Below, one piece after another: positions 1-10,838 of a DNA stretch of 64,000 nucleotides. Position numbers and translations under genes: made by a program. Position 1 is the first letter of the stretch, and each line of letters starts with the position of its first letter. Origin of the DNA: Candidatus Latescibacterota bacterium (lineage in GTDB: Bacteria; Latescibacterota; UBA2968; GCA-2709665); contig OZ220733.1 of the NCBI GenBank assembly GCA_965116875.1, positions 3,968,001 to 4,032,000 on the forward strand, written 5' to 3'. Below the pieces are notes generated by a model that ran no database searches, was not told the DNA's origin, and saw only the letters and a program-made list of their open reading frames with translations.

Positions 1-1049
1 CGGCCGCCATGTTTCGGGCGCACGACAATCCGACGCTTCAGGATCTGATGAAACGCCTCGACAAAGATGTCCTGGTGGGCACGCTGTCCTATTCGGACCC
101 CGAGACGGGATCGCATTTCTGGTATCCGATATCCTCGGGAGCAGAGCGGGTGGAGGGCGGCTGGAAGGTACGCAAAAAGGCATCGTGGACGACGTCCGCG
201 GGCTTCGCCGACTGGTACATCGTGCAGACCACGAGTCCCGATTTCGACGGCGACTACTCGAATCTGTCCTGTTTTCTCGTCATGGCCGGGGAGGTGAAGT
301 CGGAGCCGTCGCTGTGGGACGGCCTGGGTCTGCGCGGGAACCAGTCCGGCACGCTGGAGGTCGACAACGTCACGATGCCGGAAGACAGGCTGGTGGGCCC
401 CGTGGGCGACGGGGCGAATTCCAACGACGAGACGGTGGATCCGTTCTTCCTGTTATGCTCATCCGCGTGCTGGAACGGAATCTCACTGGGGATGATCGAT
501 ATCGCCAGGCGGCACACCACCGCGAGGCGGCACGCGGACGTGGGCATGCGGGTGGCAGATTACCCGACGATCCAGGATTACGTGGGCGAGGCCGTTATCG
601 ACACGAACACCTCACGGTCCTTCGTCTACATGATGGCACGGGCGATGGACGACGTCACGAATCAATGCGATTGGTCGATTCATGAGGACCTCGCCTGTAT
701 GCCAAGGGCGGACGTGCTTCACTGGATGTGGCAGGTGAAGTTCACCGCGGCGAAGAACGTGGCGAACGTTTCTGACAAGATGCTCCACGCCTGCGGTGGG
801 ACGGGGTACAAGCCCGACCTGGGGATCGAACGGTACCTGCGCGACGGAAAGGCCGGGTGGGTGATGGGCCCCACGAATGAGGTCCTGCGCCAGTTTGTGG
901 GCAAGAGCGTGTTGCTTGGGTTCGACTCACTGGACTACTGGAACCAGTCCGTAAACGAGCGGTTATTGAGGAACGAACTCAAGAAGATGGATGGCGAGAG
1001 CAAGAGGGAACTCGGGCGTGAGCTTCTGGCCGAAACCGATGAGGGATGA
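1..1049 (+). CDS. Acyl-CoA dehydrogenase-fold flavoprotein, probably truncated at the 5' end by the window edge; possible flavin-dependent monooxygenase
   Basis: ACAD motifs SYSDPETGSH, KKASWTTS, WDGLGLRGNQSG, GGTGY..IERYLRD. The frame is open to the window start. The canonical YEGT catalytic-Glu motif is replaced by MGPT. Stop overlaps the tdm start (ATGA). Confidence 0.85.
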   Translation, partial: AAMFRAHDNPTLQDLMKRLDKDVLVGTLSYSDPETGSHFWYPISSGAERVEGGWKVRKKASWTTSAGFADWYIVQTTSPDFDGDYSNLSCFLVMAGEVKSEPSLWDGLGLRGNQSGTLEVDNVTMPEDRLVGPVGDGANSNDETVDPFFLLCSSACWNGISLGMIDIARRHTTARRHADVGMRVADYPTIQDYVGEAVIDTNTSRSFVYMMARAMDDVTNQCDWSIHEDLACMPRADVLHWMWQVKFTAAKNVANVSDKMLHACGGTGYKPDLGIERYLRDGKAGWVMGPTNEVLRQFVGKSVLLGFDSLDYWNQSVNERLLRNELKKMDGESKRELGRELLAETDEG

Positions 1050-3382
1050 TGCCTGTAGACGTCCAAATGTACGGAACGGGACTGCTGAGGTGGACGCCGG
1101 GCCGGGAGCGCTATCGGGTGCCCGGCGGTGGGGCGATCGCCCTGGAGTTGTTGCAGGGAGATCGGCTGGCGATGGTGGACGTCGAGGGGCGCCAGCGTTG
1201 CGAGCTTGGGATATTCGGTCCTGACGGCAGCGCCGATCCTTCCAGATTGGGGGTCCGGGCTGATGGCGCGATGGAGGGTTTCGCGGAGGCGCTCGGCCGC
1301 GGGGACGAGAGCGCGCAGGCGGCCAACGCGGCCCTGCGGCGCAGGGGCGTCGACGTTGCAGGCGCGCGGGCGGTGCAGGTTTTCGGCGGAGAGACGGAAG
1401 CCGGCGCCGAAGCCGGTTTCGACGTGCAACGGGACGCCGTTTGCGTGATTGCGGCCCCGGGCGGACCGATGAGCGTGGATGCCCAGGATCCTCCGACGGA
1501 CCTGGAAGTCGTGGTCAGACGTTCAAATGTGGAAACGCCTGAACGCCCGCCGCTGCCCGCGCCATTGGGAGACACGCGACTGGATCTGGACGTCGAAAGG
1601 GCGTCGGCCTTTGCCTACGAGGTCAAAGCCGGAGAATTCATCCAGGTGATCGACGTTGCCGGCCGCCAGTGTTCGGATTTTCTGGCGTTCGACGCCAGGC
1701 AACTGCAGCGCGGGGTTGAGCGGGGCCTGGATGCGACCACCACGCGGACCCTCATGGGCGCCGCCTATCCCGGTCCGGGCCTTTATTCGAAATTCTACGA
1801 CCGGGATATGCAGCCGCTGGTCGAGGTAGTTCGGGATACGGTAGGGCGGCACGATACGTTTGCGCTTGCGTGCACCGCCAAATATTACGAGGATATGGGT
1901 TATCCGGGTCACGTCAACTGTACGGACAACTTCAACGCGGCACTGGACCCGTATACCATACAGCCCCGGCGCGGCTGGCCCGCGGTGAATTTCTTCTACA
2001 ATACGAGAATCGACGGGAATAACGTCCTGTTCATGGACGAGCCATGGTCTCGTCCGGGCGACTACGTTCTTTTGAAAGCGCTGACGGACCTGGTCTGTCT
2101 GTCGTCCGCGTGCCCGGACGATATCGATCCGGCCAACGGCTGGGAGCCTACGGAAATTCAGGTCCGCGTCTACCCTGAACGATACCGGTTTTCGAGAGGG
2201 ATTGCTCACCGGATGACGGCAGACGCCGAGCCCAGGTTGACGAGGGAGACGGCCTTTCACCCGCGTACGTCCGCCCTGACCCGCCATTTCGAGGAATATC
2301 GGGGGTTCTGGCTGCCCTCGTGCTTTACCGGCAGCGGCGCCGTCGAGGAATATTTCGCCTGCCGCGAAACCGCGGCGGTGATGGATTTGTCCGCGCTGCG
2401 CAAGTTCGAGGTCCTGGGACCGGACGCCGAGGCGCTGCTGCAGCATACGCTGACGCGAGACGTTCGCAGGCTCTCGCCGGGTCAGGTGACGTATTCCGCG
2501 ATGTGTTACGAAACCGGCGGCATGCTGGACGACGGCACGCTGTTCCGACTGGGCCCCGAGAATTTCCGGTGGATCTGCGGCGATGACTACGGGGGCGAGT
2601 GGCTGCGCGAGCAGGCGGGTCGACTCGGGATGCGGGTGTGGGTCAGAAACTCGACCGATCAGCTCCACAATCTTGCCGTCCAGGGTCCCCGAAGCCGGGA
2701 ACTCCTTCGCAATCTCATCTGGACCCCTCCTTCCCGCCCGTCTCTGGCCGAATTGGGCTGGTTCCGATTCACGGTGGGCCGAATCGCCGATGGGAGCGGG
2801 CCGGCGGTTGTCGTCTCGCGGACGGGGTACACGGGGGAACTGGGCTACGAGGTTTGGTGCCATCCCAACGATGCACCGGCGGTCTGGGACGCCATCCGGG
2901 AAGTGGGACACGGGTACGGCCTGACGCCGTTGGGGCTGGAGGCCCTGGACATGCTGCGAATCGAGGCCGGTCTGGTTTTCGCGGGCTGTGAGTTCGACGA
3001 TCAGACGGACCCGTTCGAAGCGGGAATCGGCTTCACGGTTCCGCTCGGACGCAAGAAAGACGATTTCATCGGCAAGGAAGCTCTGGTTCACAGGCGGTCG
3101 CACCCCCAACGGGTGCTGGTTGGCCTGGAGGTATCCGGAAACGAACCGGCCGCCACCGGTGACGACGTCTACCAGGGGCGCGGCCGGGTGGGCGTGATTA
3201 CCAGCGGTACACGATCGCCCGTTCTGGGAAAGAATATCGCGCTCTGCCGAATCGCGGCCGGGTACGCCGCGATCGGCGTGGAGGTCGAGGTCGGAAGGCT
3301 GGACGGCCATCAGAAGCGCATTCCCGCGCGGGTGGTGCGGTTTCCGTTTTACGATCCGGGCAAATCGCGGCCTCGTTCCTGA
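1046..3382 (+). CDS. tdm: Trimethylamine N-oxide demethylase (DUF1989 + GcvT aminomethyltransferase fusion)
   Basis: DUF1989 motifs GRQCSDF, RHDTFALAC, GHVNC, SSACPDD followed by a GcvT domain (MDLSALRKF, SRTGYTGELGYE, LRIEAG). Hand-counted spacing of D/H/F/C/H/C/Y/W/C matches the residues recalled for Methylocella Tdm (D198, H256, F259, C263, H276, C279, Y305, W321, C343). Confidence 0.9.
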   Translation: MMPVDVQMYGTGLLRWTPGRERYRVPGGGAIALELLQGDRLAMVDVEGRQRCELGIFGPDGSADPSRLGVRADGAMEGFAEALGRGDESAQAANAALRRRGVDVAGARAVQVFGGETEAGAEAGFDVQRDAVCVIAAPGGPMSVDAQDPPTDLEVVVRRSNVETPERPPLPAPLGDTRLDLDVERASAFAYEVKAGEFIQVIDVAGRQCSDFLAFDARQLQRGVERGLDATTTRTLMGAAYPGPGLYSKFYDRDMQPLVEVVRDTVGRHDTFALACTAKYYEDMGYPGHVNCTDNFNAALDPYTIQPRRGWPAVNFFYNTRIDGNNVLFMDEPWSRPGDYVLLKALTDLVCLSSACPDDIDPANGWEPTEIQVRVYPERYRFSRGIAHRMTADAEPRLTRETAFHPRTSALTRHFEEYRGFWLPSCFTGSGAVEEYFACRETAAVMDLSALRKFEVLGPDAEALLQHTLTRDVRRLSPGQVTYSAMCYETGGMLDDGTLFRLGPENFRWICGDDYGGEWLREQAGRLGMRVWVRNSTDQLHNLAVQGPRSRELLRNLIWTPPSRPSLAELGWFRFTVGRIADGSGPAVVVSRTGYTGELGYEVWCHPNDAPAVWDAIREVGHGYGLTPLGLEALDMLRIEAGLVFAGCEFDDQTDPFEAGIGFTVPLGRKKDDFIGKEALVHRRSHPQRVLVGLEVSGNEPAATGDDVYQGRGRVGVITSGTRSPVLGKNIALCRIAAGYAAIGVEVEVGRLDGHQKRIPARVVRFPFYDPGKSRPRS

Positions 3383-3469
3383 TCGCAGACAACAGCTTCT
3401 CCGGCCGTCGAGGAACCGCATGAACGGGGCTGGAAGCTTCGCGGCGGACGTCGCTCTTGTTGAGAGGGT

Positions 3470-3967
3470 ATGGGAATGGCCTTCGACCCGATGGAGCAAC
3501 GCCGGATCATGGGTTGTTTTGCAACCGGCGTAACCGTTGTCACTACCGTTTCCGGCGGCGAATACAGGGGAATGACGGCCAATGCCGTGACCTCGCTTTC
3601 GCTGGAGCCCCCGCTGGTCATGGTGTCCGTGGACAGGGGGGCGCAAATGCACGCGCATCTGACGGAGAGCCGGTATTTCGCCTTGAATATCCTCAGCGAG
3701 GATCAGGAAGCGGTTTCAACGCAGTTCGCCAGACCGGGTCCCAAGGACTTTTCAAACGTGGCCACAACGACGTGCCGGACCGGCGCGCCCGTCCTCACGG
3801 ACGCGCTGGGCCACGTGGAATGTCTGCTGGCCGACGTACTCCGTGCCGGCGACCATGATATCTTTGTTGGTGAAATCGTAGCGGGCGATGCCGGACCAGG
3901 TCGTCCGCTCCTGTTTTACCAGGGGAAGTATCGCCGGATGTCGAACGGGACTGAATCCAGGGTCTGA
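3470..3967 (+). CDS. Flavin reductase (HpaC/RutF family), reductase partner of two-component monooxygenases
   Basis: FATGVTVVT, GMTANAVTSLSLEPPLV, GDHDIFVGE, PLLFYQG motifs. Confidence 0.92.
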   Translation: MGMAFDPMEQRRIMGCFATGVTVVTTVSGGEYRGMTANAVTSLSLEPPLVMVSVDRGAQMHAHLTESRYFALNILSEDQEAVSTQFARPGPKDFSNVATTTCRTGAPVLTDALGHVECLLADVLRAGDHDIFVGEIVAGDAGPGRPLLFYQGKYRRMSNGTESRV

Positions 3968-4164
3968 AGGACGCGTGACGCGGGCGCCTCGCTTTCCTCA
4001 GGTTTTACCTCAATTCCGCCCAAGCCGCAACGCGGCGCCGCGACGAAACCATTCAAAACGGGCCGAAATGGTCGTCATGAAGGACATTTTTTCCGTTCAC
4101 GTACAGTGTCCTGGTGTATCCTGGTAATCAGCAGTTTAATCGCCTTTATTAACTCACACATATA

Positions 4165-4210
4165 CGAATTAACCTCCCGGAAAAATAACGAATCAAGGTT
4201 AATTCGGAGG
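4165..4210 (+). promoter_or_regulatory. Perfect 11-bp inverted repeat abutting the amt ribosome-binding site
   Basis: CGAATTAACCT (4165-4175) / AGGTTAATTCG (4196-4206), then GGAGG, in an AT-rich leader. Confidence 0.5.
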
Positions 4211-4216
4211 GGAGAT

Positions 4217-5611
4217 ATGGACAACGAACTCAGCGCATTGACCGTCGTGTTTACGGAATTCTATTACTGGATATGCATCGTGCTCATGTTCCTCATCCAC
4301 GTCGGCTTCTGTCTGTACGAAGTCGGCGTGTCCAGGAGGAAGAATATGATGCATACCCTCATGAAGAACGCGATGCTGATTCCGCTGGTCACCATCACGT
4401 TCTATTTCTTCGGGTGGTGGATCTATTTTGCCGTTCAGAACGGACCCGGGATCACGGGCGGACTGATCGAAGCCGCGTGGGCGACGCCCTGGAATGAGCT
4501 GATGGGGACCCATATGGGAGGCAAACCGCACGGCGGGGGTCTCACAGGAGACGACACGGCGCTCTGGGCGCGGCTGAACGGCGTCTTCTGGGCGGCCTTT
4601 CTGCTGTTTTCATGGACGGCGGGATCGATCCTATCGGGCGCGGTCATCGAACGCATCCGATCCGGCGCGTTCTGGATCTTCGCGGTGCTTGTGGGGTCGG
4701 TCACGTGGGTGATCGACGCGGCGTGGGGCTGGTCCGCAGACGGCTGGATGGTGCAGATTCTGGGGTATCACGATGCGTACGCATCCGGCGTCATCCATGC
4801 AATCAGCGGCGGGTCCGCGCTGGCGATCCTCTATCACCTGGGACCTCGAATCGGCAGATTCAGGTCCGACGGTTCTCCCAGGAACTTCCCGCCGCAAAAT
4901 ACCTGGCTTGTGATCATCGGTCTGTTTCTGATTTACACGGGATTCTGGGGTTTCTACGCGGCCTGCAACGTGCCCATTATGGACATCGACGCCTCCGACG
5001 CCAGGGCGTTCTTTTCCGCCACCACGATTTACCTGACGCCCACCACGCTCAGCGCGATCACGTTCAACTTTCTGATGTCGCTCGCCGGCGGTTTGATCAT
5101 GGGCTATTTCGTGTCCGGGGGTGATCCGTACTGGACCTTTTCCGGCGGACTTGCCGGCATCATCACGGCGTCTGCGGGCAACGACCTGTACCATCCGATG
5201 CAGGCGCTGCTCATCGGCGCATTCGGCACGTTCTGCATGTACAGGTTGCACAATTGGGTCGAGAAGCGGTTCAGGATCGACGATGCGGTGGGCGCCGTGG
5301 CGGTACATGGATATGCCGGAGTTATCGGGGTGATTGTCGCGGGATTCGTACTCTGGGGGTATCCCGCAGCCAATCCCGAGTACGCTCCGATTACGCCGTG
5401 GGGACAGACGCTCGGTGCTGTCATTATGTTTTTTGTGCTGGGCTTTCTACCCTGTTACGTCGTTGGCGCGATCCTCAAGAAGCTTGGCGTTCTGCGTATA
5501 CCGGGTCGGATAGAACTTGCGGGCCTGGATCACGTGACCATTCAGAACGAGACGGTGGATACGGACGAACTCGTTCAGGCGGAAATCGACGAATCGCAGG
5601 CAGGCGGATAG
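4217..5611 (+). CDS. amt: Ammonium/methylammonium transporter (Amt family)
   Basis: About 11 hydrophobic segments; GAVIERI, HDAYASGVIH, LGPRIGRF, IDDAVGAVAVHG (twin His). Start moved to ATG 4217 after GGAGGG. Confidence 0.92.
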   Translation: MDNELSALTVVFTEFYYWICIVLMFLIHVGFCLYEVGVSRRKNMMHTLMKNAMLIPLVTITFYFFGWWIYFAVQNGPGITGGLIEAAWATPWNELMGTHMGGKPHGGGLTGDDTALWARLNGVFWAAFLLFSWTAGSILSGAVIERIRSGAFWIFAVLVGSVTWVIDAAWGWSADGWMVQILGYHDAYASGVIHAISGGSALAILYHLGPRIGRFRSDGSPRNFPPQNTWLVIIGLFLIYTGFWGFYAACNVPIMDIDASDARAFFSATTIYLTPTTLSAITFNFLMSLAGGLIMGYFVSGGDPYWTFSGGLAGIITASAGNDLYHPMQALLIGAFGTFCMYRLHNWVEKRFRIDDAVGAVAVHGYAGVIGVIVAGFVLWGYPAANPEYAPITPWGQTLGAVIMFFVLGFLPCYVVGAILKKLGVLRIPGRIELAGLDHVTIQNETVDTDELVQAEIDESQAGG

Positions 5612-5620
5612 AAAGGATTT

Positions 5621-7306
5621 ATGCGCGAGCACGACCCGTTGCCGGACATCGAGATCGCGAGGCGAGCACGCCTGCTCCATATAGGCCAGGTCGCGCAGAC
5701 ACTGGGCGTGCCGGAAGACCAGCTGGAGGTCTACGGCAGGCATAAGGCCAAGGTTTCGATGGACTTTTGCGACAGCCTTGCCGGCAATGCCACCGGCAGG
5801 CTGGTGCTGGTCTCGGCGATCAATCCCACGCCGTCCGGTGAGGGCAAAACCACCACAACCGTGGGCCTGGGCGATGCGCTGAACCGGCTGGGAAAGCGCA
5901 CCGCCATCTGTCTCAGGGAGCCTTCCCTGGGACCCTGTTTCGGGATGAAGGGGGGGGCTGCCGGCGGCGGGATGTCCCAGGTGGCGCCGATGGAGGACAT
6001 CAACCTGCACTTTACGGGCGATATCCATGCCATCGGGGTCGCCCACAATCTGCTGTCCGCTGCGATCGACAACCACATCCATCACCGGAACCGGCTGGAA
6101 ATCGACCCCCGGCGCGTACTCTGGAAGCGCGTGATGGACATGAACGACCGCGCGCTTCGTGAAATCGTCGTCGGTCTGGGAGGTACGGGGAACTCCTATC
6201 CTCGTGAATCCGGATTTGAGATCACGGTCGCGTCCGAAGTGATGGCGATTTTCTGCCTGTCGGAGTCGCTCGACGAACTCCGGGAGCGGCTGGGTCGGAT
6301 CGTCGTGGCGGTTACGCGGGCCAATGAACCGGTCACGGCGGAGGACCTCAACGTGCACGGGGCGATGGCCGTACTGTTGAGAGACGCGCTGAAGCCGAAT
6401 CTGGTACAGACCCTGGAGAACAACCCGGCCATCGTTCACGGCGGTCCGTTCGCCAATATCGCGCATGGTTGCAATTCGGTGATCGCGACGAAGCTGGCGA
6501 TGCGTCTGTCCGAGTATACCGTAACCGAAGCCGGATTCGGCGCGGATCTGGGCGCGGAGAAGTTCCTGAACATCAAGTGCCGGCAGGCAGGTATCCGCCC
6601 CGATGTGGTGGTGCTCGTGGCGACGGTGCGCGGGCTGAAATACCATGGCGGCGTCTCGCTCAGGCGACTGTCGGACGCCGACCCGGCGGCGCTGGAAAAG
6701 GGGCTCGTCAACCTGAGGAAGCATATCGAAAACATCCGGCGTTTCGGCCTGCCCGCCGTCGTGGCCGTGAACCGGTTTCTTTCCGATACGTCCGGTGAGA
6801 TCGCTCGGATACAGGACGCGTGCGCCGATATGAATCTGCCGATCGTTCCTTCGGAACACTGGGCAAAAGGAGGGGTCGGCGCGGAGGCGCTTGCGGGGAC
6901 GGTTGTCGAAGCCGCGGAAACGGCGCCCCGCGATTTCAAGCTTCTCTATCCCGACGGTCTTCGGCTGTGGGACAAGGCCAGGATCGTTGCCCGCGAAGTC
7001 TACGGCGCCGACGATATTATGGGGGACAAACGGTTGAGGGCCCGGTTCGCAAAGCTCGAGGAAGCGGGCTACGGGAGGCTTCCGGTCTGTATGGCCAAGA
7101 CCCAGTATTCGCTCTCGACCGATCCGGGCTTGAAGGGCAGACCGAGGGGTTTCGACGTGCCCATTCGCGACGTCAGGGTATCTGCCGGCGCCGGGTTTGT
7201 GGTTGTGTATACAGGAGACGTCATGACAATGCCCGGGCTTCCGCGCAGGCCTTCCGCGGAAGCGATCGATTACGATGAAGCCGGGAACACGGTCGGATTG
7301 TTCTGA
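5621..7306 (+). CDS. fhs: Formate--tetrahydrofolate ligase
   Basis: [62 protein letters not shown]. Confidence 0.97.
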
Positions 7307-7337
7307 AGGCGGAACCTGGTTTGATTCCAGCCACGGA

Positions 7338-7517
7338 CGTTTCGTCCATTCGTTTCTCGTCTGTTCGTCTTCTGGCTTTGCGAAACTGCGAATGTACGAG
7401 GGAACGAATGTACGAAAGAGCGGGAATACGTCGTTCGTCCTCTGGTTTTCTCGTCTATCGTCTCTTCGTTATCTCGTAGTCTCGTATTCTCGTAGTCTCG
7501 CTATCTCATTACTTCGC
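7338..7517. repeat. Three alternating-orientation arrays with 8-nt periodicity (TCGT-N4 / CGA-N5 / TCGT-N4)
   Basis: CG(A) at 7381, 7389, 7397, 7405, 7413, 7421, 7429; TCGT at 7342-7365 and at 7458, 7466, 7474, 7482, 7490, with TCGC at 7498. Confidence 0.8.
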
Positions 7518-7557
7518 GTGTTTTGCAGTTTCCGGGTTGCTTCAAAGGAGGACGCAG

Positions 7558-7788
7558 ATGAGAACGGGTTTGGTTGAAACGTGGACGGGGAATCCGGCCG
7601 ACGTGGGCCCGATGTATCCCTTTGTCGGGTACGAGGTTCCTCTCTTCGTGGTCTGTATTATTCTGTGGCTTGCGTACACGATCTGGCAGATCAGACACGA
7701 GAATGCAACCTATGCTGACGAGTCGAAGCAACTGGCCGAAGCAGGTTCGCTGGTATCGGCGATTGAACGTGAGGGAAGGAACCTCTAA
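7558..7788 (+). CDS. Small single-pass membrane protein (76 aa)
   Basis: Strong RBS AAGGAGGA before ATG 7558; GPMYPFVG followed by one TM segment and WQIRHEN. Confidence 0.8.
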   Translation: MRTGLVETWTGNPADVGPMYPFVGYEVPLFVVCIILWLAYTIWQIRHENATYADESKQLAEAGSLVSAIEREGRNL

Positions 7789-7969
7789 CAGTCCGTTGAT
7801 AAAGTCGCTCTGCAGGCGAGGCCGAGCCATTGTGGTCGAAGACAAGGCGCGCGACCGAGTCCCATCCTGCGATTCGGCGAGGGAGCGCAACGCAGGTTTT
7901 CGACCGCAAGGGCCGGACGCAGCCCGGATGGACTTTTTCAACGGGCTGCTATAAGGAGGAGAACCGACG

Positions 7970-9304
7970 ATGACGCTGGACCAGGTTAAAGAATTCGTAG
8001 CCGCGAATGGAATCGACTTCTTTCTGTGTTCATTCGTGGAGATGAGCGGAATGCCCAAGGCGAAGGTGGTGCCTGTGACCCACCTCGACGACATGGCCTC
8101 GGAGGGCGCGGGGTTCGCGGGGTTCGCGGCGGGCAATATGGGGCAGGGACCGCACGATTCCGATATGATGAACATCCCGGACTTCAACTCGATGACCGTA
8201 TTGCCGTGGCGCAAGAATACGGCGTGGGTTGCGGGCAACATCCAGGTTGAGGGGGAGCCTTTCGGGTATTGTCCGCGGACGATCCTGCAGCGCCAGCTCG
8301 CGAAGGCGGAGGCGATGGGATATCGCCTGAATCTGGGCGTGGAGGCGGAGTTCATTCTCCTGAAAAAAGACGACCAGGGGAACTATGTGCTGGCCGATCC
8401 GATGGACACGCTCGAAAAGCCCTGTTACGATCTCGTCACCCTTCATCGCAACCTGGACGTGATGACCACGCTGATCGGGTATATGCAGGAGCTGGGATGG
8501 GAACCCTATGCAAACGACCACGAAGACGCCAATTGCCAGTTCGAAATCAACTGGACCTATTCCGACGCGCTGACGACCGCCGATCGCCAGACGTTTTTCA
8601 GGTGGATGGTGAAGGTGAACGCGGAGCGGCTCGGGTACCACGCGACCTTCATGCCGAAGCCGTTTTCTCATCTCACGGGAAGCGGAGCGCACTATCACAT
8701 GAGCCTGTGGGACCCGGAGAACAGGACCAACCTTTTCCTCGACGACGGGGATGAAAACGGCCTGTCGAAGGAGGCTTACTGGTTCATGGCAGGCATCCTC
8801 AACCACGCGAAGGCGATTTCAGCCGTGTCCGCGCCGCTGGTGAACAGCTACAAACGCCTCACGCGCGGCGCGCCTCGATCTGGCGCGTCCTGGGCGCCGA
8901 TCTGCATCACCTACGGCGGATCGAACCGGACGCAGATGGTTCGAATTCCGGACGCGGGTCGGATCGAGAACCGGGCGATCGACGGGGCGGCGAATCCGTA
9001 CCTGACGACCGCGGCAATGCTGGCGGCCGGGCTGGACGGCATCGAAAACCGCATGGAACCCGGCGAACGCAACGAGGGCAACTTGTATGAGGTGTCCGAG
9101 AGCGATTTGAGAGCGAGGGGCATCGACCTTCTCCCGGGTACCCTGGCGGAGGCGGCCGATCACCTGGCGTCCGACGACGTGCTCCGGGAGGCGCTCGGCA
9201 CGGAATATGCGGACTATTACGTGCAGGTGAAACGCGAAGAGTGGGCGGAGTACCATCTGCACGTCGACCAGTGGGAACGCGAGCGCTATCTGCCGGTCTA
9301 TTAG
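7970..9304 (+). CDS. gmaS: Type III glutamine synthetase-like enzyme, probable gamma-glutamylmethylamide synthetase
   Basis: GAGFAGFA, DHEDANCQFE, ATFMPKPF, NRTQMVRIP, DGAANPYL are GlnT/GmaS-type motifs; context with tdm, amt and fhs favours GmaS. Confidence 0.8.
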   Translation: MTLDQVKEFVAANGIDFFLCSFVEMSGMPKAKVVPVTHLDDMASEGAGFAGFAAGNMGQGPHDSDMMNIPDFNSMTVLPWRKNTAWVAGNIQVEGEPFGYCPRTILQRQLAKAEAMGYRLNLGVEAEFILLKKDDQGNYVLADPMDTLEKPCYDLVTLHRNLDVMTTLIGYMQELGWEPYANDHEDANCQFEINWTYSDALTTADRQTFFRWMVKVNAERLGYHATFMPKPFSHLTGSGAHYHMSLWDPENRTNLFLDDGDENGLSKEAYWFMAGILNHAKAISAVSAPLVNSYKRLTRGAPRSGASWAPICITYGGSNRTQMVRIPDAGRIENRAIDGAANPYLTTAAMLAAGLDGIENRMEPGERNEGNLYEVSESDLRARGIDLLPGTLAEAADHLASDDVLREALGTEYADYYVQVKREEWAEYHLHVDQWERERYLPVY

Positions 9305-9344
9305 TGGCTGTCGTTGGGAGTCATCGATCTCCGCACCGCCATTT

Positions 9345-9448
9345 GGGCGCCCACAAGGGTTGCCCCTGCAAATGCAACGTCGGCGCGTAGCCCGGAGTAT
9401 TCAATTCCTGGATGTTTGGTCGTGTAGGGGCGCCCCTTGTGGGCGCCC
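9345..9448. repeat. Pair of inverted GTAG-type REP sequences
   Basis: GGGCGCCCACAAGGGTTGCCCCTGCA (9345-9370) and TGTAGGGGCGCCCCTTGTGGGCGCCC (9423-9448) are reverse complements with 3 mismatches. Confidence 0.85.
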
Positions 9449-9494
9449 GGCCGACGACATCCTTGCGGTATCGAGAATCTGACGGGATAAGTCA

Positions 9495-10838
9495 ATGAAA
9501 AGTGAAGCCAGGCGGCCGGTTCGGGAGGCGCCGCGCGGCATCGGAGGCTTGTTGCGGAATATCGGACCGGGCGTGGTCGTGTCGGGTTCGGTGGTCGGGT
9601 CCGGCGAGTTGCTGGTGACCACGCGCATGGGGGCGGAGGTGGGGTTCGTCTTCCTCTGGGGGGTGATCCTGGCCTGTCTGGTCAAATTCTTCATCCAGCT
9701 GGAACTCGGGCGGCAGTGCGTCCTTCACAACAACACGACGATCCAGGTGCTGGACCGTGTGCCCGGGATGCGCCTGGCGAAGGCCTCCTGGGCGGCCTGG
9801 CTGTGCGTGTTGGGTTATTTCTCCGTGATGATTGCCGTGATCGGCATCCTGGGTTCCGTGGCTGGGCTGATGGTGACCCTGTTCCCCGGCGTCCCGTACA
9901 ATGTCTGGGCCATGCTGGTTTTCGCGGCAATCTCGGTACTGCTGTACCGGGGTCTGTACGCCGACCTGGAGCGGATGATCACAATACTCGTCGCGGGCTT
10001 CAGCCTGGTGGTCATCGGGTCCGTGCTGACGATGCAGGCAACGCCCTACGCCGTGAGTGGCGCCGAGGTATTGTCGGGGTTTCGCTTCGCCCTGCCCGCG
10101 GACGGGGCGTTCGTCGCCATGGCCGTGATGGGGTCCGTGGGCGCGACGGCGGTGGAGCTGTTCATGTATCCGTACTGGGTGCGGGAGAAGGGGTATGCGG
10201 ATTACGTGGGACCGCGGGAGGATACGCCGGAGTGGCGGGCGCGCTATCGGGGTTGGATGCGGGTGCTGAAAGCCGATGCGCTGGTCTGCACCGGAATCGC
10301 TTTGGTGATTACCTGCGCATACTATCTGCTGGGCGCCTCCATTCTGAAGAAGCTGAACGTGGTCCCCCAGGGCATGGAGGTCGTGGAGCAGGTATCGCTG
10401 ATATTCACGCAAAGCATTGGACCATGGACCAAGAACGTGTTCATGTTCGGCGCTTTCTGCACGCTGTTTTCCACGCTGCTCGTCTTTACGGCCAGCTCCG
10501 GGCGCATCAGCGTGGATTTTCTGAGGCAGACGGGCGTCTCCGGCCTGGACAGCGAAGCGGTCCGGCTGCGGCTGCTGCGGGCGTTGCAGGTCGCCTTTCC
10601 GTTTCTGTGGCTTTGCGTGACCATTGCAACCCCCGATACCCCGCTGGCACTGGTACTCATCGGCGCCAATGCAAACAACCTGCTGCTGATTCCGATGGCC
10701 TACGGGGTGGTGCACCTTGCGATGCGGGCTGCGGAAGCGGAGAGAATGTCCGTCTGGACGGAACTTGCATTGTTGCTGACGATCTGGGCGATCGTCAACT
10801 TTACCGCGGTTAATCTCTATTTGAACTGGACGAGATAA
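9495..10838 (+). CDS. Nramp-related (YcsG-like, LeuT-fold) transporter
   Basis: IGPGVVVSGSVVGSGELL N-terminal motif and about 11 TM segments; no canonical Nramp DPGN. Confidence 0.8.
   Translation: MKSEARRPVREAPRGIGGLLRNIGPGVVVSGSVVGSGELLVTTRMGAEVGFVFLWGVILACLVKFFIQLELGRQCVLHNNTTIQVLDRVPGMRLAKASWAAWLCVLGYFSVMIAVIGILGSVAGLMVTLFPGVPYNVWAMLVFAAISVLLYRGLYADLERMITILVAGFSLVVIGSVLTMQATPYAVSGAEVLSGFRFALPADGAFVAMAVMGSVGATAVELFMYPYWVREKGYADYVGPREDTPEWRARYRGWMRVLKADALVCTGIALVITCAYYLLGASILKKLNVVPQGMEVVEQVSLIFTQSIGPWTKNVFMFGAFCTLFSTLLVFTASSGRISVDFLRQTGVSGLDSEAVRLRLLRALQVAFPFLWLCVTIATPDTPLALVLIGANANNLLLIPMAYGVVHLAMRAAEAERMSVWTELALLLTIWAIVNFTAVNLYLNWTR

Follow-up and report, generated by a model that had tools for sequence, protein, structure and literature searches.

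To our knowledge, the oxidation of trimethylamine (TMA) to trimethylamine N-oxide (TMAO) by bacteria is ascribed to a single family, the flavin-containing monooxygenase (FMO) Tmm, and surveys of methylated-amine metabolism count tmm genes. Amine N-oxygenation is also performed by isobutylamine N-hydroxylase, a flavin-reductase-dependent enzyme of the acyl-coenzyme A (acyl-CoA) dehydrogenase (ACAD) fold. The group D ACAD-fold proteins Dms1-3 of Acinetobacter baylyi, together with a flavin reductase, oxidize dimethyl sulfide to dimethyl sulfoxide (PMC13352529). The present analysis concerns the left end of a 64,000-nucleotide stretch of the genome of a Candidatus Latescibacterota bacterium (hereafter the window; G000:C1:3968001-4032000, G000:C1 being the single 5.45-Mb contig of a genome rated 97.7% complete), where a gene for an ACAD-fold protein, the TMAO demethylase gene tdm and a flavin reductase gene follow one another. 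The initial annotation of this DNA had suggested that the ACAD-fold protein and the reductase form either a TMA N-oxygenase or an enzyme oxidizing dimethylamine (DMA); comparative genomics lends support to such a pair, and the TMA option is preferred over that of DMA. Based on sequence comparison, it is proposed that the pair is probably a two-component, Tmm-independent TMA N-oxygenase which would convert TMA to TMAO, and which most likely replaces Tmm in many bacteria from soils and sponges. A literature search returned no paper tying an ACAD-fold enzyme to TMA oxidation, subscription journals lying mostly beyond its reach.

The three genes on which the proposal rests are arranged as follows.

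Positions 3 to 1049, forward strand, open at the window's left end: open reading frame (ORF) of the ACAD-fold protein, the proposed oxygenase component (Pfam Acyl-CoA_dh_N, _M and _1).
Positions 1046 to 3382, forward strand: tdm, encoding TMAO demethylase with DUF1989 and GcvT domains (NF053776, 1238 bits against a cut-off of 1100).
Positions 3470 to 3967, forward strand: HpaC/StyB/HsaB-type NAD(P)H:flavin reductase of 165 amino acids, the proposed reductase component (PF01613 Flavin_Reduct, E 8e-44).

The window carries the C-terminal 348 of the 464 amino acids of the ACAD-fold protein, the full gene occupying G000:C1:3967655-3969049 (17655-19049 of L002, the local stretch which covers the window's left edge). 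As annotated initially, the ACAD-fold gene overlaps the start of tdm and the flavin reductase gene follows tdm, an arrangement which the ORFs and the sequence confirm: positions 1041-1052 read GGATGATGCCTG, in which the ACAD stop codon TGA (1047-1049) overlaps the tdm ATG (1046-1048) as ATGA. The NCBIfam matches of the flavin reductase are reductase subunits of two-component monooxygenases, all of them under the equivalog cut-offs.

Based on the Pfam matches of its full-length sequence (Acyl-CoA_dh_N, 62.5 bits; _M, 33.8 bits; _1, 41.0 bits), the ACAD is a protein of the three-domain acyl-CoA dehydrogenase fold. In HMMER alignments to the solved ACADs 8i4p and 7w0j, the query segment RDGKAGWVMGPTNEVLR falls on RDAKITQIYEGTNQIQR, which places Gly at the catalytic Glu (MGPT for YEGT) and upholds the earlier reading of AGWVMGPT as a replacement of the YEGT motif. 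The motif RD[GA]KA[GS]WVMGP[TS] is present in 80/80 bacterial orthologues, its pattern was missed in 2 of 57 animal proteins, and none of the 135 motif-bearing family members has Glu at the catalytic place. The window's protein lacks the catalytic Glu (YEGT or equivalent) of classical ACADs, and, as in group D enzymes, no catalytic base occupies the YEGT position, to which the check was confined, the alternative Glu position of the IVD/LCAD type lying outside it. Because the catalytic Glu is lost, the protein would be unable to dehydrogenate acyl-CoA.

The best NCBIfam match of the ACAD is Rv1679_FadE16 (NF049984), with 219 bits over residues 43-419; since this score is far under the family cut-off of 600, the protein is not considered a member of Rv1679/FadE16, for which a literature search found no function reported in titles or abstract openings. 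Its best matches among solved structures are the ordinary ACADs 8i4p and 7w0j, with 111 bits as a single sequence. When a library clustered at 50% identity was searched, the family's own representatives scored 835, 564, 511 and 426 bits and ordinary ACADs of 380-420 amino acids about 190 bits and less, with an ostracod fusion protein (333 bits), a Sporosarcina cluster (239 bits) and nothing else between them. By these scores, the ACAD belongs to a discrete family without a name of its own, the members of which are annotated merely as "acyl-CoA dehydrogenase" or "AidB-like". The species-representative genomes searched (185,579 species) yielded 297 confirmed ACAD stretches, of which 80 loci were kept for counts. 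Orthologues are 72-97% identical over these 80 loci, and the record titles name Latescibacterota, Gemmatimonadota, Acidobacteriota, Alphaproteobacteria, Udaeobacter and cyanobacteria. Across 139 bacterial and animal sequences, 83 residues are at least 97% invariant, several of them inside an insert at approximately residues 335-362 which is absent from classical ACADs. W156, W178, W340 and W357 are invariant Trp residues of the family.

Neighbouring genes were counted by tblastn of the window's own proteins against the flanks of the 80 loci. Tdm was encoded in the flanks of 56 loci, and in 41 of the 48 at which at least 9 kb was available on both sides (full-flank loci), while the distance from the ACAD to tdm was less than 400 bp at 31 of the 80. 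A flavin reductase homologue was present in the flanks of 50/80 loci (32/48 full-flank loci), and at 22 of the 80 it adjoins the ACAD on the same strand; N-methylglutamate (NMG)-pathway genes occurred at 37/80 loci, and gmaS shares clusters with the ACAD in related loci too. That homologues would co-locate with methylamine genes, as the initial annotation envisaged, is borne out by the linkage to tdm, gmaS and mgs across phyla. The gene order of related Latescibacterota and Acidobacteriota is mgd-gmaS-mgsA-mgsB-mgsC-(small ORF)-ACAD-tdm, and that of Alphaproteobacteria is a unit of a cold-shock-domain gene, the reductase and the ACAD, with tdm close by on the opposite strand. Xanthobacter flavus and Labrys okinawensis possess one cluster of the order ACAD-reductase-tdm-(permease or dmmD)-dmmA-dmmB-dmmC (dmmC specifying HODM alpha), in which the ACAD/reductase pair stands where, we assume, tmm stands in classical clusters. 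Five apparent ACAD-Tdm fusion proteins (P0299-P0303) were not accepted as such: four (P0300-P0303) contain long out-of-frame Arg-rich stretches and represent assembly frameshift artefacts, and P0299 reads cleanly but could be generated by a single indel at the junction; all five were counted as adjacency rather than fusion.

Of 15 Tmm-type, ACAD-less genomes, a single one has a homologue of the reductase no more than 6 kb from tdm, and the reductase is, therefore, not a general accessory of Tdm. This genomic association suggests that the ACAD has a separate NAD(P)H:flavin reductase as its partner. In animals, an ACAD domain and a reductase module are found in one polypeptide: proteins of approximately 770 amino acids join an ACAD domain, 36-65% identical to the window's ACAD, to a FAD_binding_6 plus NAD_binding_1 module of the cytochrome-b5-reductase/Fre type. 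Such fusions are widespread, being encoded by lobster, shrimps, crabs, crayfish, mantis shrimp, isopod, krill, barnacles, ostracod and corals, as well as by amphipods (including the hadal Hirondellea gigas), the annelid Owenia and the brachiopod Lingula. These proteins of marine and freshwater invertebrates (P0122, P0129, P0134 and P0304-P0363) often occur as multiple paralogues in one genome, and every one of them is either misnamed or without a name. The fusions are considered real because lobster and ostracod share a conserved linker and because the genes reside on megabase scaffolds. The attachment of an electron-donating reductase to the ACAD domain points to an oxygenase that is activated by reduction. 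It is possible that the animal fusions are TMAO synthases; TMAO has been measured in crustaceans, and the FMO origin of its synthesis is assumed rather than shown (PMC9511220).

Profile searches of the whole 5.45-Mb genome returned no match to PF00743 or NF058570 (Tmm) and none to PF22290 (DmmA_N) or PF11927 (DmmC/HODM alpha), such that the absence of tmm and dmm first noted for the window extends to the upstream region and the entire genome. The mgsABC genes which the initial annotation proposed to seek were found, a complete mgsABC-mgdABCD cluster with a second gmaS being located at 5.22-5.23 Mb. Searches of other carrier genomes used 50 of the 80 loci, namely those with the longest contigs, and Tmm was defined by NF058570 over its cut-off (675). 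The use of PF00743 as a Tmm marker was abandoned, full-length FMO matches having proved not to be Tmm (L087 scored 99.8 bits on NF058570); true Tmm aligned to PF00743 in part only. Tmm exceeded the cut-off in 5 of 51 ACAD genomes searched. DmmC (PF11927) gave no match in 46 of 49, the source genome included and G043 and G044 left out, three genomes possessing DmmC, and DmmA_N over its cut-off was missing in 44 of 50.

For an even comparison, samples of 401 Alphaproteobacteria and 401 Acidobacteriota were employed. Tdm was encoded by 33 of the alphaproteobacterial genomes and the ACAD by 10, nine of which also encode Tdm. The 33 Tdm-positive genomes comprised 15 with Tmm, nine with the ACAD, none with both and nine with neither (Fisher p = 0.0014), so that Tmm was found in 0/9 ACAD-positive versus 15/24 ACAD-negative genomes. 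Among the nine with neither, three belong to a divergent Tdm-like clade, one has a broken Tmm and others are small or fragmented assemblies. This long-branched clade (G429, G307 and G337; L128, L129 and L131), the proteins of which score 1002-1023 bits, under the NF053776 cut-off, in genomes without Tmm and ACAD matches, may represent a paralogue with another substrate. In the Acidobacteriota sample, Tdm was found in 8/401 genomes, with the ACAD in 8/8 and Tmm in 0/8 of these. Dmm was distributed otherwise: DmmC was encoded by 2/9 ACAD-positive versus 4-6/24 ACAD-negative alphaproteobacterial Tdm genomes, and DmmA by 1/9 versus 4/24 (Fisher p = 1.0). Exclusion of Tmm without exclusion of Dmm therefore favours a substitute for Tmm over a substitute for Dmm, and of the anti-correlations considered at the outset, that with tmm held and that with dmm did not.

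The Tdm tree comprised 36 rows, among them 4 of the 8 Acidobacteriota Tdm sequences; the partial Tdm of G078 and G154 and a second copy in G142 were left out. ACAD-linked and Tmm-linked Tdm proteins interleave on this tree, with at least six changes between the two states, and well-supported ACAD/Tmm neighbours are G296/G422, G042/G423, and G389 beside G391, G086 and G262.

To the observed gene order, Glu loss, family distinctness, linkage to tdm and the reductase, exclusion of Tmm and reductase fusions, we would add a mechanism modelled on that of group D enzymes, in particular Dms1-3; the pair's substrate, product, flavin chemistry and direction of electron flow are inferred. The reductase would use NAD(P)H to produce reduced flavin, which the ACAD-fold protein is predicted to take up and to convert, with O2, to a C4a-hydroperoxyflavin. 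The flavin hydroperoxide would then pass one oxygen to the lone pair of the TMA nitrogen, yielding TMAO, and the pair would in this manner take over the reaction of Tmm, a single-component FMO. Tdm, which appears to be translationally coupled to the ACAD, would cleave TMAO to DMA and formaldehyde, the latter presumably being trapped by tetrahydrofolate. One-carbon units and methylamine would be processed further by Fhs, GmaS and the NMG pathway, the mgs and mgd genes of which are located elsewhere in the genome.

Several findings weigh against this proposal. The reductase adjoins tdm rather than the ACAD at 25 of the 80 loci, lies elsewhere at 3 and is absent from the flanks of 30, and 7 of the 48 full-flank loci have no Tdm nearby. 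True Tmm is also encoded by 5 of 60 ACAD carriers tested (G026, G037, G038, G041 and G045); in one of these, Virgifigura deserti (G026), tmm-tdm directly adjoins the reductase-ACAD operon, and the Labrys genome has an additional Tmm elsewhere. One carrier with an ACAD 60% identical to that of the window (G098) is devoid of any Tdm. When corrected for phylogeny, the Tdm tree provides four independent pairs on supported branches, with Tmm opposite to the ACAD in three to four of them, a number of pairs too small for significance (sign test, p = 0.125), and a habitat or lineage effect may in part underlie the census pattern. Furthermore, the ACAD scores higher against classical short-chain ACADs (286 bits by profile, 111 bits by single sequence) than against KijD3 (174 and 48 bits) or DszC (41 bits by single sequence), and is not closer to known group D enzymes than to dehydrogenases. 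Given the distance of its sequence from known group D members, the protein is filed as working like group D rather than as a member of a named subfamily.

The first of the alternatives, that the pair is a broader heteroatom oxygenase acting on TMA and DMA, other small tertiary amines or dimethyl sulfide, is considered rather doubtful. It draws on the promiscuity of the related group D proteins Dms1-3, which act on dimethyl sulfide and dimethyl sulfoxide (PMC13352529), on the circumstance that Tmm and Dmm are both unmatched in most carriers, and on the seven full-flank loci without tdm nearby. One defined small substrate is, in contrast, indicated by the 72-97% identity across phyla, the 83 invariant residues and the tight link to tdm, and the clusters show no sign of sulfur metabolism.

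It is less probable again, and in our estimation unlikely, that the pair takes the place of DmmABC/HODM in oxidizing DMA to methylamine, thereby bridging Tdm and GmaS. Most clusters join tdm to gmaS/mgs, and a DMA step is, therefore, missing, as the scarcity of DmmC and DmmA_N in carriers (no match in 46/49 and none over cut-off in 44/50, respectively) and the absence of both from the source genome illustrate; the five Tmm carriers, including G026 with its tmm-tdm beside reductase-ACAD, would also suit a step other than that of TMA. Conversely, the Alphaproteobacteria sample reveals no exclusion of Dmm, and X. flavus and L. okinawensis hold the ACAD, the reductase, tdm and dmmABC in one cluster. 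A Dmm substitute should, moreover, occur in Tmm genomes lacking DmmC, yet the ACAD is found in 0/15 Tmm genomes, although 11 of the 15 gave no DmmC match and a twelfth (G080) has only a weak match of 51 bits, which argues against a DMA enzyme. Plain N-oxygenation of DMA alone would, in addition, yield no methylamine.

An improbable variant, rated no higher than the preceding one, combines both amines: the pair would oxygenate TMA as well as DMA, the latter to N,N-dimethylhydroxylamine, which is the N-oxide tautomer of DMA, and Tdm would convert each product to the next lower amine and formaldehyde. This dual activity would account for the 46/49 carriers without DmmC despite the joining of tdm to gmaS/mgs. 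If true, TMA would reach methylamine without DmmABC, which might bear on the "DMA bottleneck" of Tmm/Tdm bacteria without dmm, and the invertebrate fusions of approximately 770 amino acids would, as a corollary, be self-sufficient TMAO synthases.

That the ACAD is an ordinary CoA-dependent member of its superfamily (a dehydrogenase, or a desulfinase-like or CaiA-like enzyme), with its proximity to tdm circumstantial and the reductase serving Tdm, for instance by keeping a metal reduced, is highly improbable: true ACADs are the top solved-structure matches, ACAD flavin-binding motifs look retained in the alignment (the WTTS and GGxGY regions, residues of which we take to be important for flavin binding in ACADs) and the reductase adjoins tdm rather than the ACAD at 25/80 loci, but no member examined has the catalytic Glu, the recurrent neighbours include no CoA ligase, CoA transferase or electron transfer flavoprotein gene (no search targeted at these families having been made), the reductase lies near tdm in just 1/15 ACAD-less clusters and is fused to the ACAD domain in animals, and neither the co-occurrence with Tdm nor the exclusion of Tmm would be accounted for.

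Downstream of the three genes assigned to the proposed TMA N-oxygenase and Tdm, the cluster contains the following features.

Positions 4004 to 4150, no strand assigned: short interspersed repeat of approximately 147 nt in the gap between the reductase and transporter genes (90 blastn matches in the genome).
Positions 4106 to 5611, forward strand: Amt-family transporter (PF00909, E 2.8e-55, from residue 55).
Positions 5621 to 7306, forward strand: formate-tetrahydrofolate ligase, fhs (NF010030, 862 bits against a cut-off of 652).
Positions 7537 to 7788, forward strand: small conserved ORF of 83 amino acids with a hydrophobic stretch, directly upstream of gmaS (ORF call).
Positions 7789 to 7950, no strand assigned: interspersed repeat of 162 nt in the gap between the small ORF and gmaS (195 blastn matches in the genome).
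Positions 7970 to 9304, forward strand: gmaS, a gamma-glutamylmethylamide synthetase-like type III glutamine synthetase (TIGR03105, 592 bits against a cut-off of 469.6).

The Amt-family protein scores 178 bits on TIGR00836, under the cut-off of 343, and a homologue is present at 23/80 ACAD loci; as its listed start falls within the repeat, the true start of the gene is probably the ATG at 4214. The genome was found to encode no OpuAC/TmoX-type binding protein, and its single BCCT carrier is located far from the cluster. Because an OpuAC/TmoX-type protein is lacking and the sole transporter of the cluster is Amt-like, amines rather than TMAO are likely imported. The nucleotide sequence of the 83-amino-acid ORF is kept just upstream of gmaS in an alignment of 11 related loci, while the 162-nt repeat is not found at the corresponding position in any of them. 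The best 15 genome copies of the 162-nt repeat are 95.7-100% identical over 160-162 nt, and many copies of the 147-nt repeat are 93-95% identical over 140-149 nt (blastn). Over both repeat families, the summed depth of the mapped metagenome contigs is very high. An Rfam search of window positions 1-10000 returned no match at E up to 0.1, and a repeat search within 3900-8100 returned short chance-like pairs only. Sponge metagenome is the label of runs X3 and X5, and coral reef metagenome that of X4; contigs of all three contain near-identical pieces of the window. One RNA-library run (X6) contains short contigs which are 97-99% alike on ACAD positions 849-1024, on tdm, on 3215-3483 and on reductase positions 3719-3984; DNA carry-over is possible in this case, contigs do not demonstrate transcription, and these were not used as evidence.

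Upstream of the ACAD, on the same strand, are genes for an S-adenosylmethionine (SAM) methyltransferase, a 454-amino-acid protein with a Glu_synthase domain and a 138-amino-acid ORF. The 454-amino-acid gene (L002 15738-17102) was considered as a possible dmmC and rejected: DmmC belongs to the HODM alpha family PF11927, unlike this protein, and the gene is an additional one of the mgsC type rather than dmm because it occupies the third place of gmaS-mgsA-mgsB-mgsC in related loci. No mgsA or mgsB accompanies it here, the SAM methyltransferase gene preceding it instead, and it is one of two stand-alone mgsC-type genes of the genome, the other (L006 9768-11114) residing within mgsABC-mgdABCD at 5.23 Mb. 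The ACAD-adjacent mgsC type is 78-98% identical across phyla, a conservation equal to or higher than that of the ACAD. The 138-amino-acid ORF (L002 17191-17607; G000:C1:3967191-3967607), located just left of the window, has no Pfam or NCBIfam match; a counterpart of 130-140 amino acids trails an mgsC-type gene in 27-32 of the 80 loci, on either ACAD strand, and seems to belong with the mgs genes.

Other genes recur in the neighbourhoods of relatives. In Alphaproteobacteria and Udaeobacter, the cold-shock-domain gene of approximately 100 codons precedes the reductase-ACAD pair, approximately 1-3 kb upstream of the ACAD (L047-L055 and L060-L063, among others). Divergent from this unit are genes for a HAL-like lyase and a fatty-acid-desaturase-family protein, with an SHMT-like gene sometimes near. 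The HAL-like lyase was assessed as an ergothionase-type TMA lyase, which was not supported: it scores 29 bits against ergothionase (6s7j) compared to 77 bits against HAL, and 12 of its 13 members are without the ASG (MIO) triplet anywhere, the remaining one having ASG near the N-terminus. A DAO-family flavoprotein of approximately 450 amino acids (listed at L020 14229-15590, among others) recurs beside tdm, amt and mgs at 15/80 loci and is a candidate for the DMA step. The copy in the source genome, 74% identical, is located at L136 7157-8614 (G000:C1:4675157-4676614); its neighbours here are a dimethylformamidase-beta-like gene (PF20254), a homocysteine S-methyltransferase-family gene (PF02574), a thiamine pyrophosphate (TPP) enzyme gene and a RidA-like gene.

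If the pair is indeed a second TMA monooxygenase, unrelated to Tmm, surveys based on tmm would overlook this capacity in several groups, namely Acidobacteriota, Latescibacterota/Gemmatimonadota, Udaeobacter, some cyanobacteria and soil Alphaproteobacteria (Dongiaceae, Rhodospirillales, Xanthobacter and Labrys). In the Alphaproteobacteria sample, the ACAD would then cover 9 of the 18 Tdm genomes without Tmm. The ACAD-reductase fusions would provide a concrete candidate for TMAO synthesis in invertebrates. Carriers without Tmm, such as Xanthobacter flavus 301 and Dongia deserti, are in culture, which opens the hypothesis to direct test.

Among the known systems with which the pair may be compared, DmmABC/HODM has no domain in common with the ACAD in any of its subunits, namely the haem-PAS alpha protein (PF11927) and the reductase subunits DmmA and DmmB. 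The amino-sugar enzymes KijD3, ORF36 (a nitrososynthase) and DnmZ share with the pair the ACAD fold and, in the proposed reaction, flavin-reductase-dependent N-oxygenation of an amine. Their single-sequence scores against the window's ACAD are low (DnmZ 4zxv, 49 bits; KijD3 3m9v, 48 bits; ORF36 3mxl, 43 bits), and the analogy drawn initially with these three enzymes stands as a functional one, whereas a close relationship does not, the ACAD being nearer to classical ACADs. Their substrates are primary amines of dTDP-sugars in antibiotic pathways, in contrast to the free tertiary amine and catabolic setting proposed here. DszC/DszD and Dms1-3/MsuE resemble the pair in their ACAD fold, the absence of the dehydrogenase Glu and a separate flavin reductase, and they deliver oxygen to a lone pair on the heteroatom of a small methylated compound, as is proposed here (PMC13352529). 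They differ in that their substrate is a sulfur compound, whereas nitrogen in a context of methylated-amine catabolism is proposed for the pair, and matches to their families are weak (NF043015 DszC, 62 bits against a cut-off of 850; TIGR04022 SfnB, 71 against 431; DszC 4doy, 41 bits). Tmm, a class B FMO (NF058570), is of an unrelated fold and binds FAD and NADPH on one polypeptide chain, whereas the present system consists of an ACAD-fold protein and an HpaC-type reductase; the FMO-like domain with its FAD and NADPH folds is absent from the ACAD, which has no PF00743 match, and the ACAD can, in this respect, only be an analogue of Tmm. As such an analogue, the pair is proposed to catalyse the same reaction, from TMA, O2 and NAD(P)H to TMAO, and it shares with Tmm the same partner, tdm, and the same position beside it, the two being mutually exclusive in the Tdm genomes sampled.

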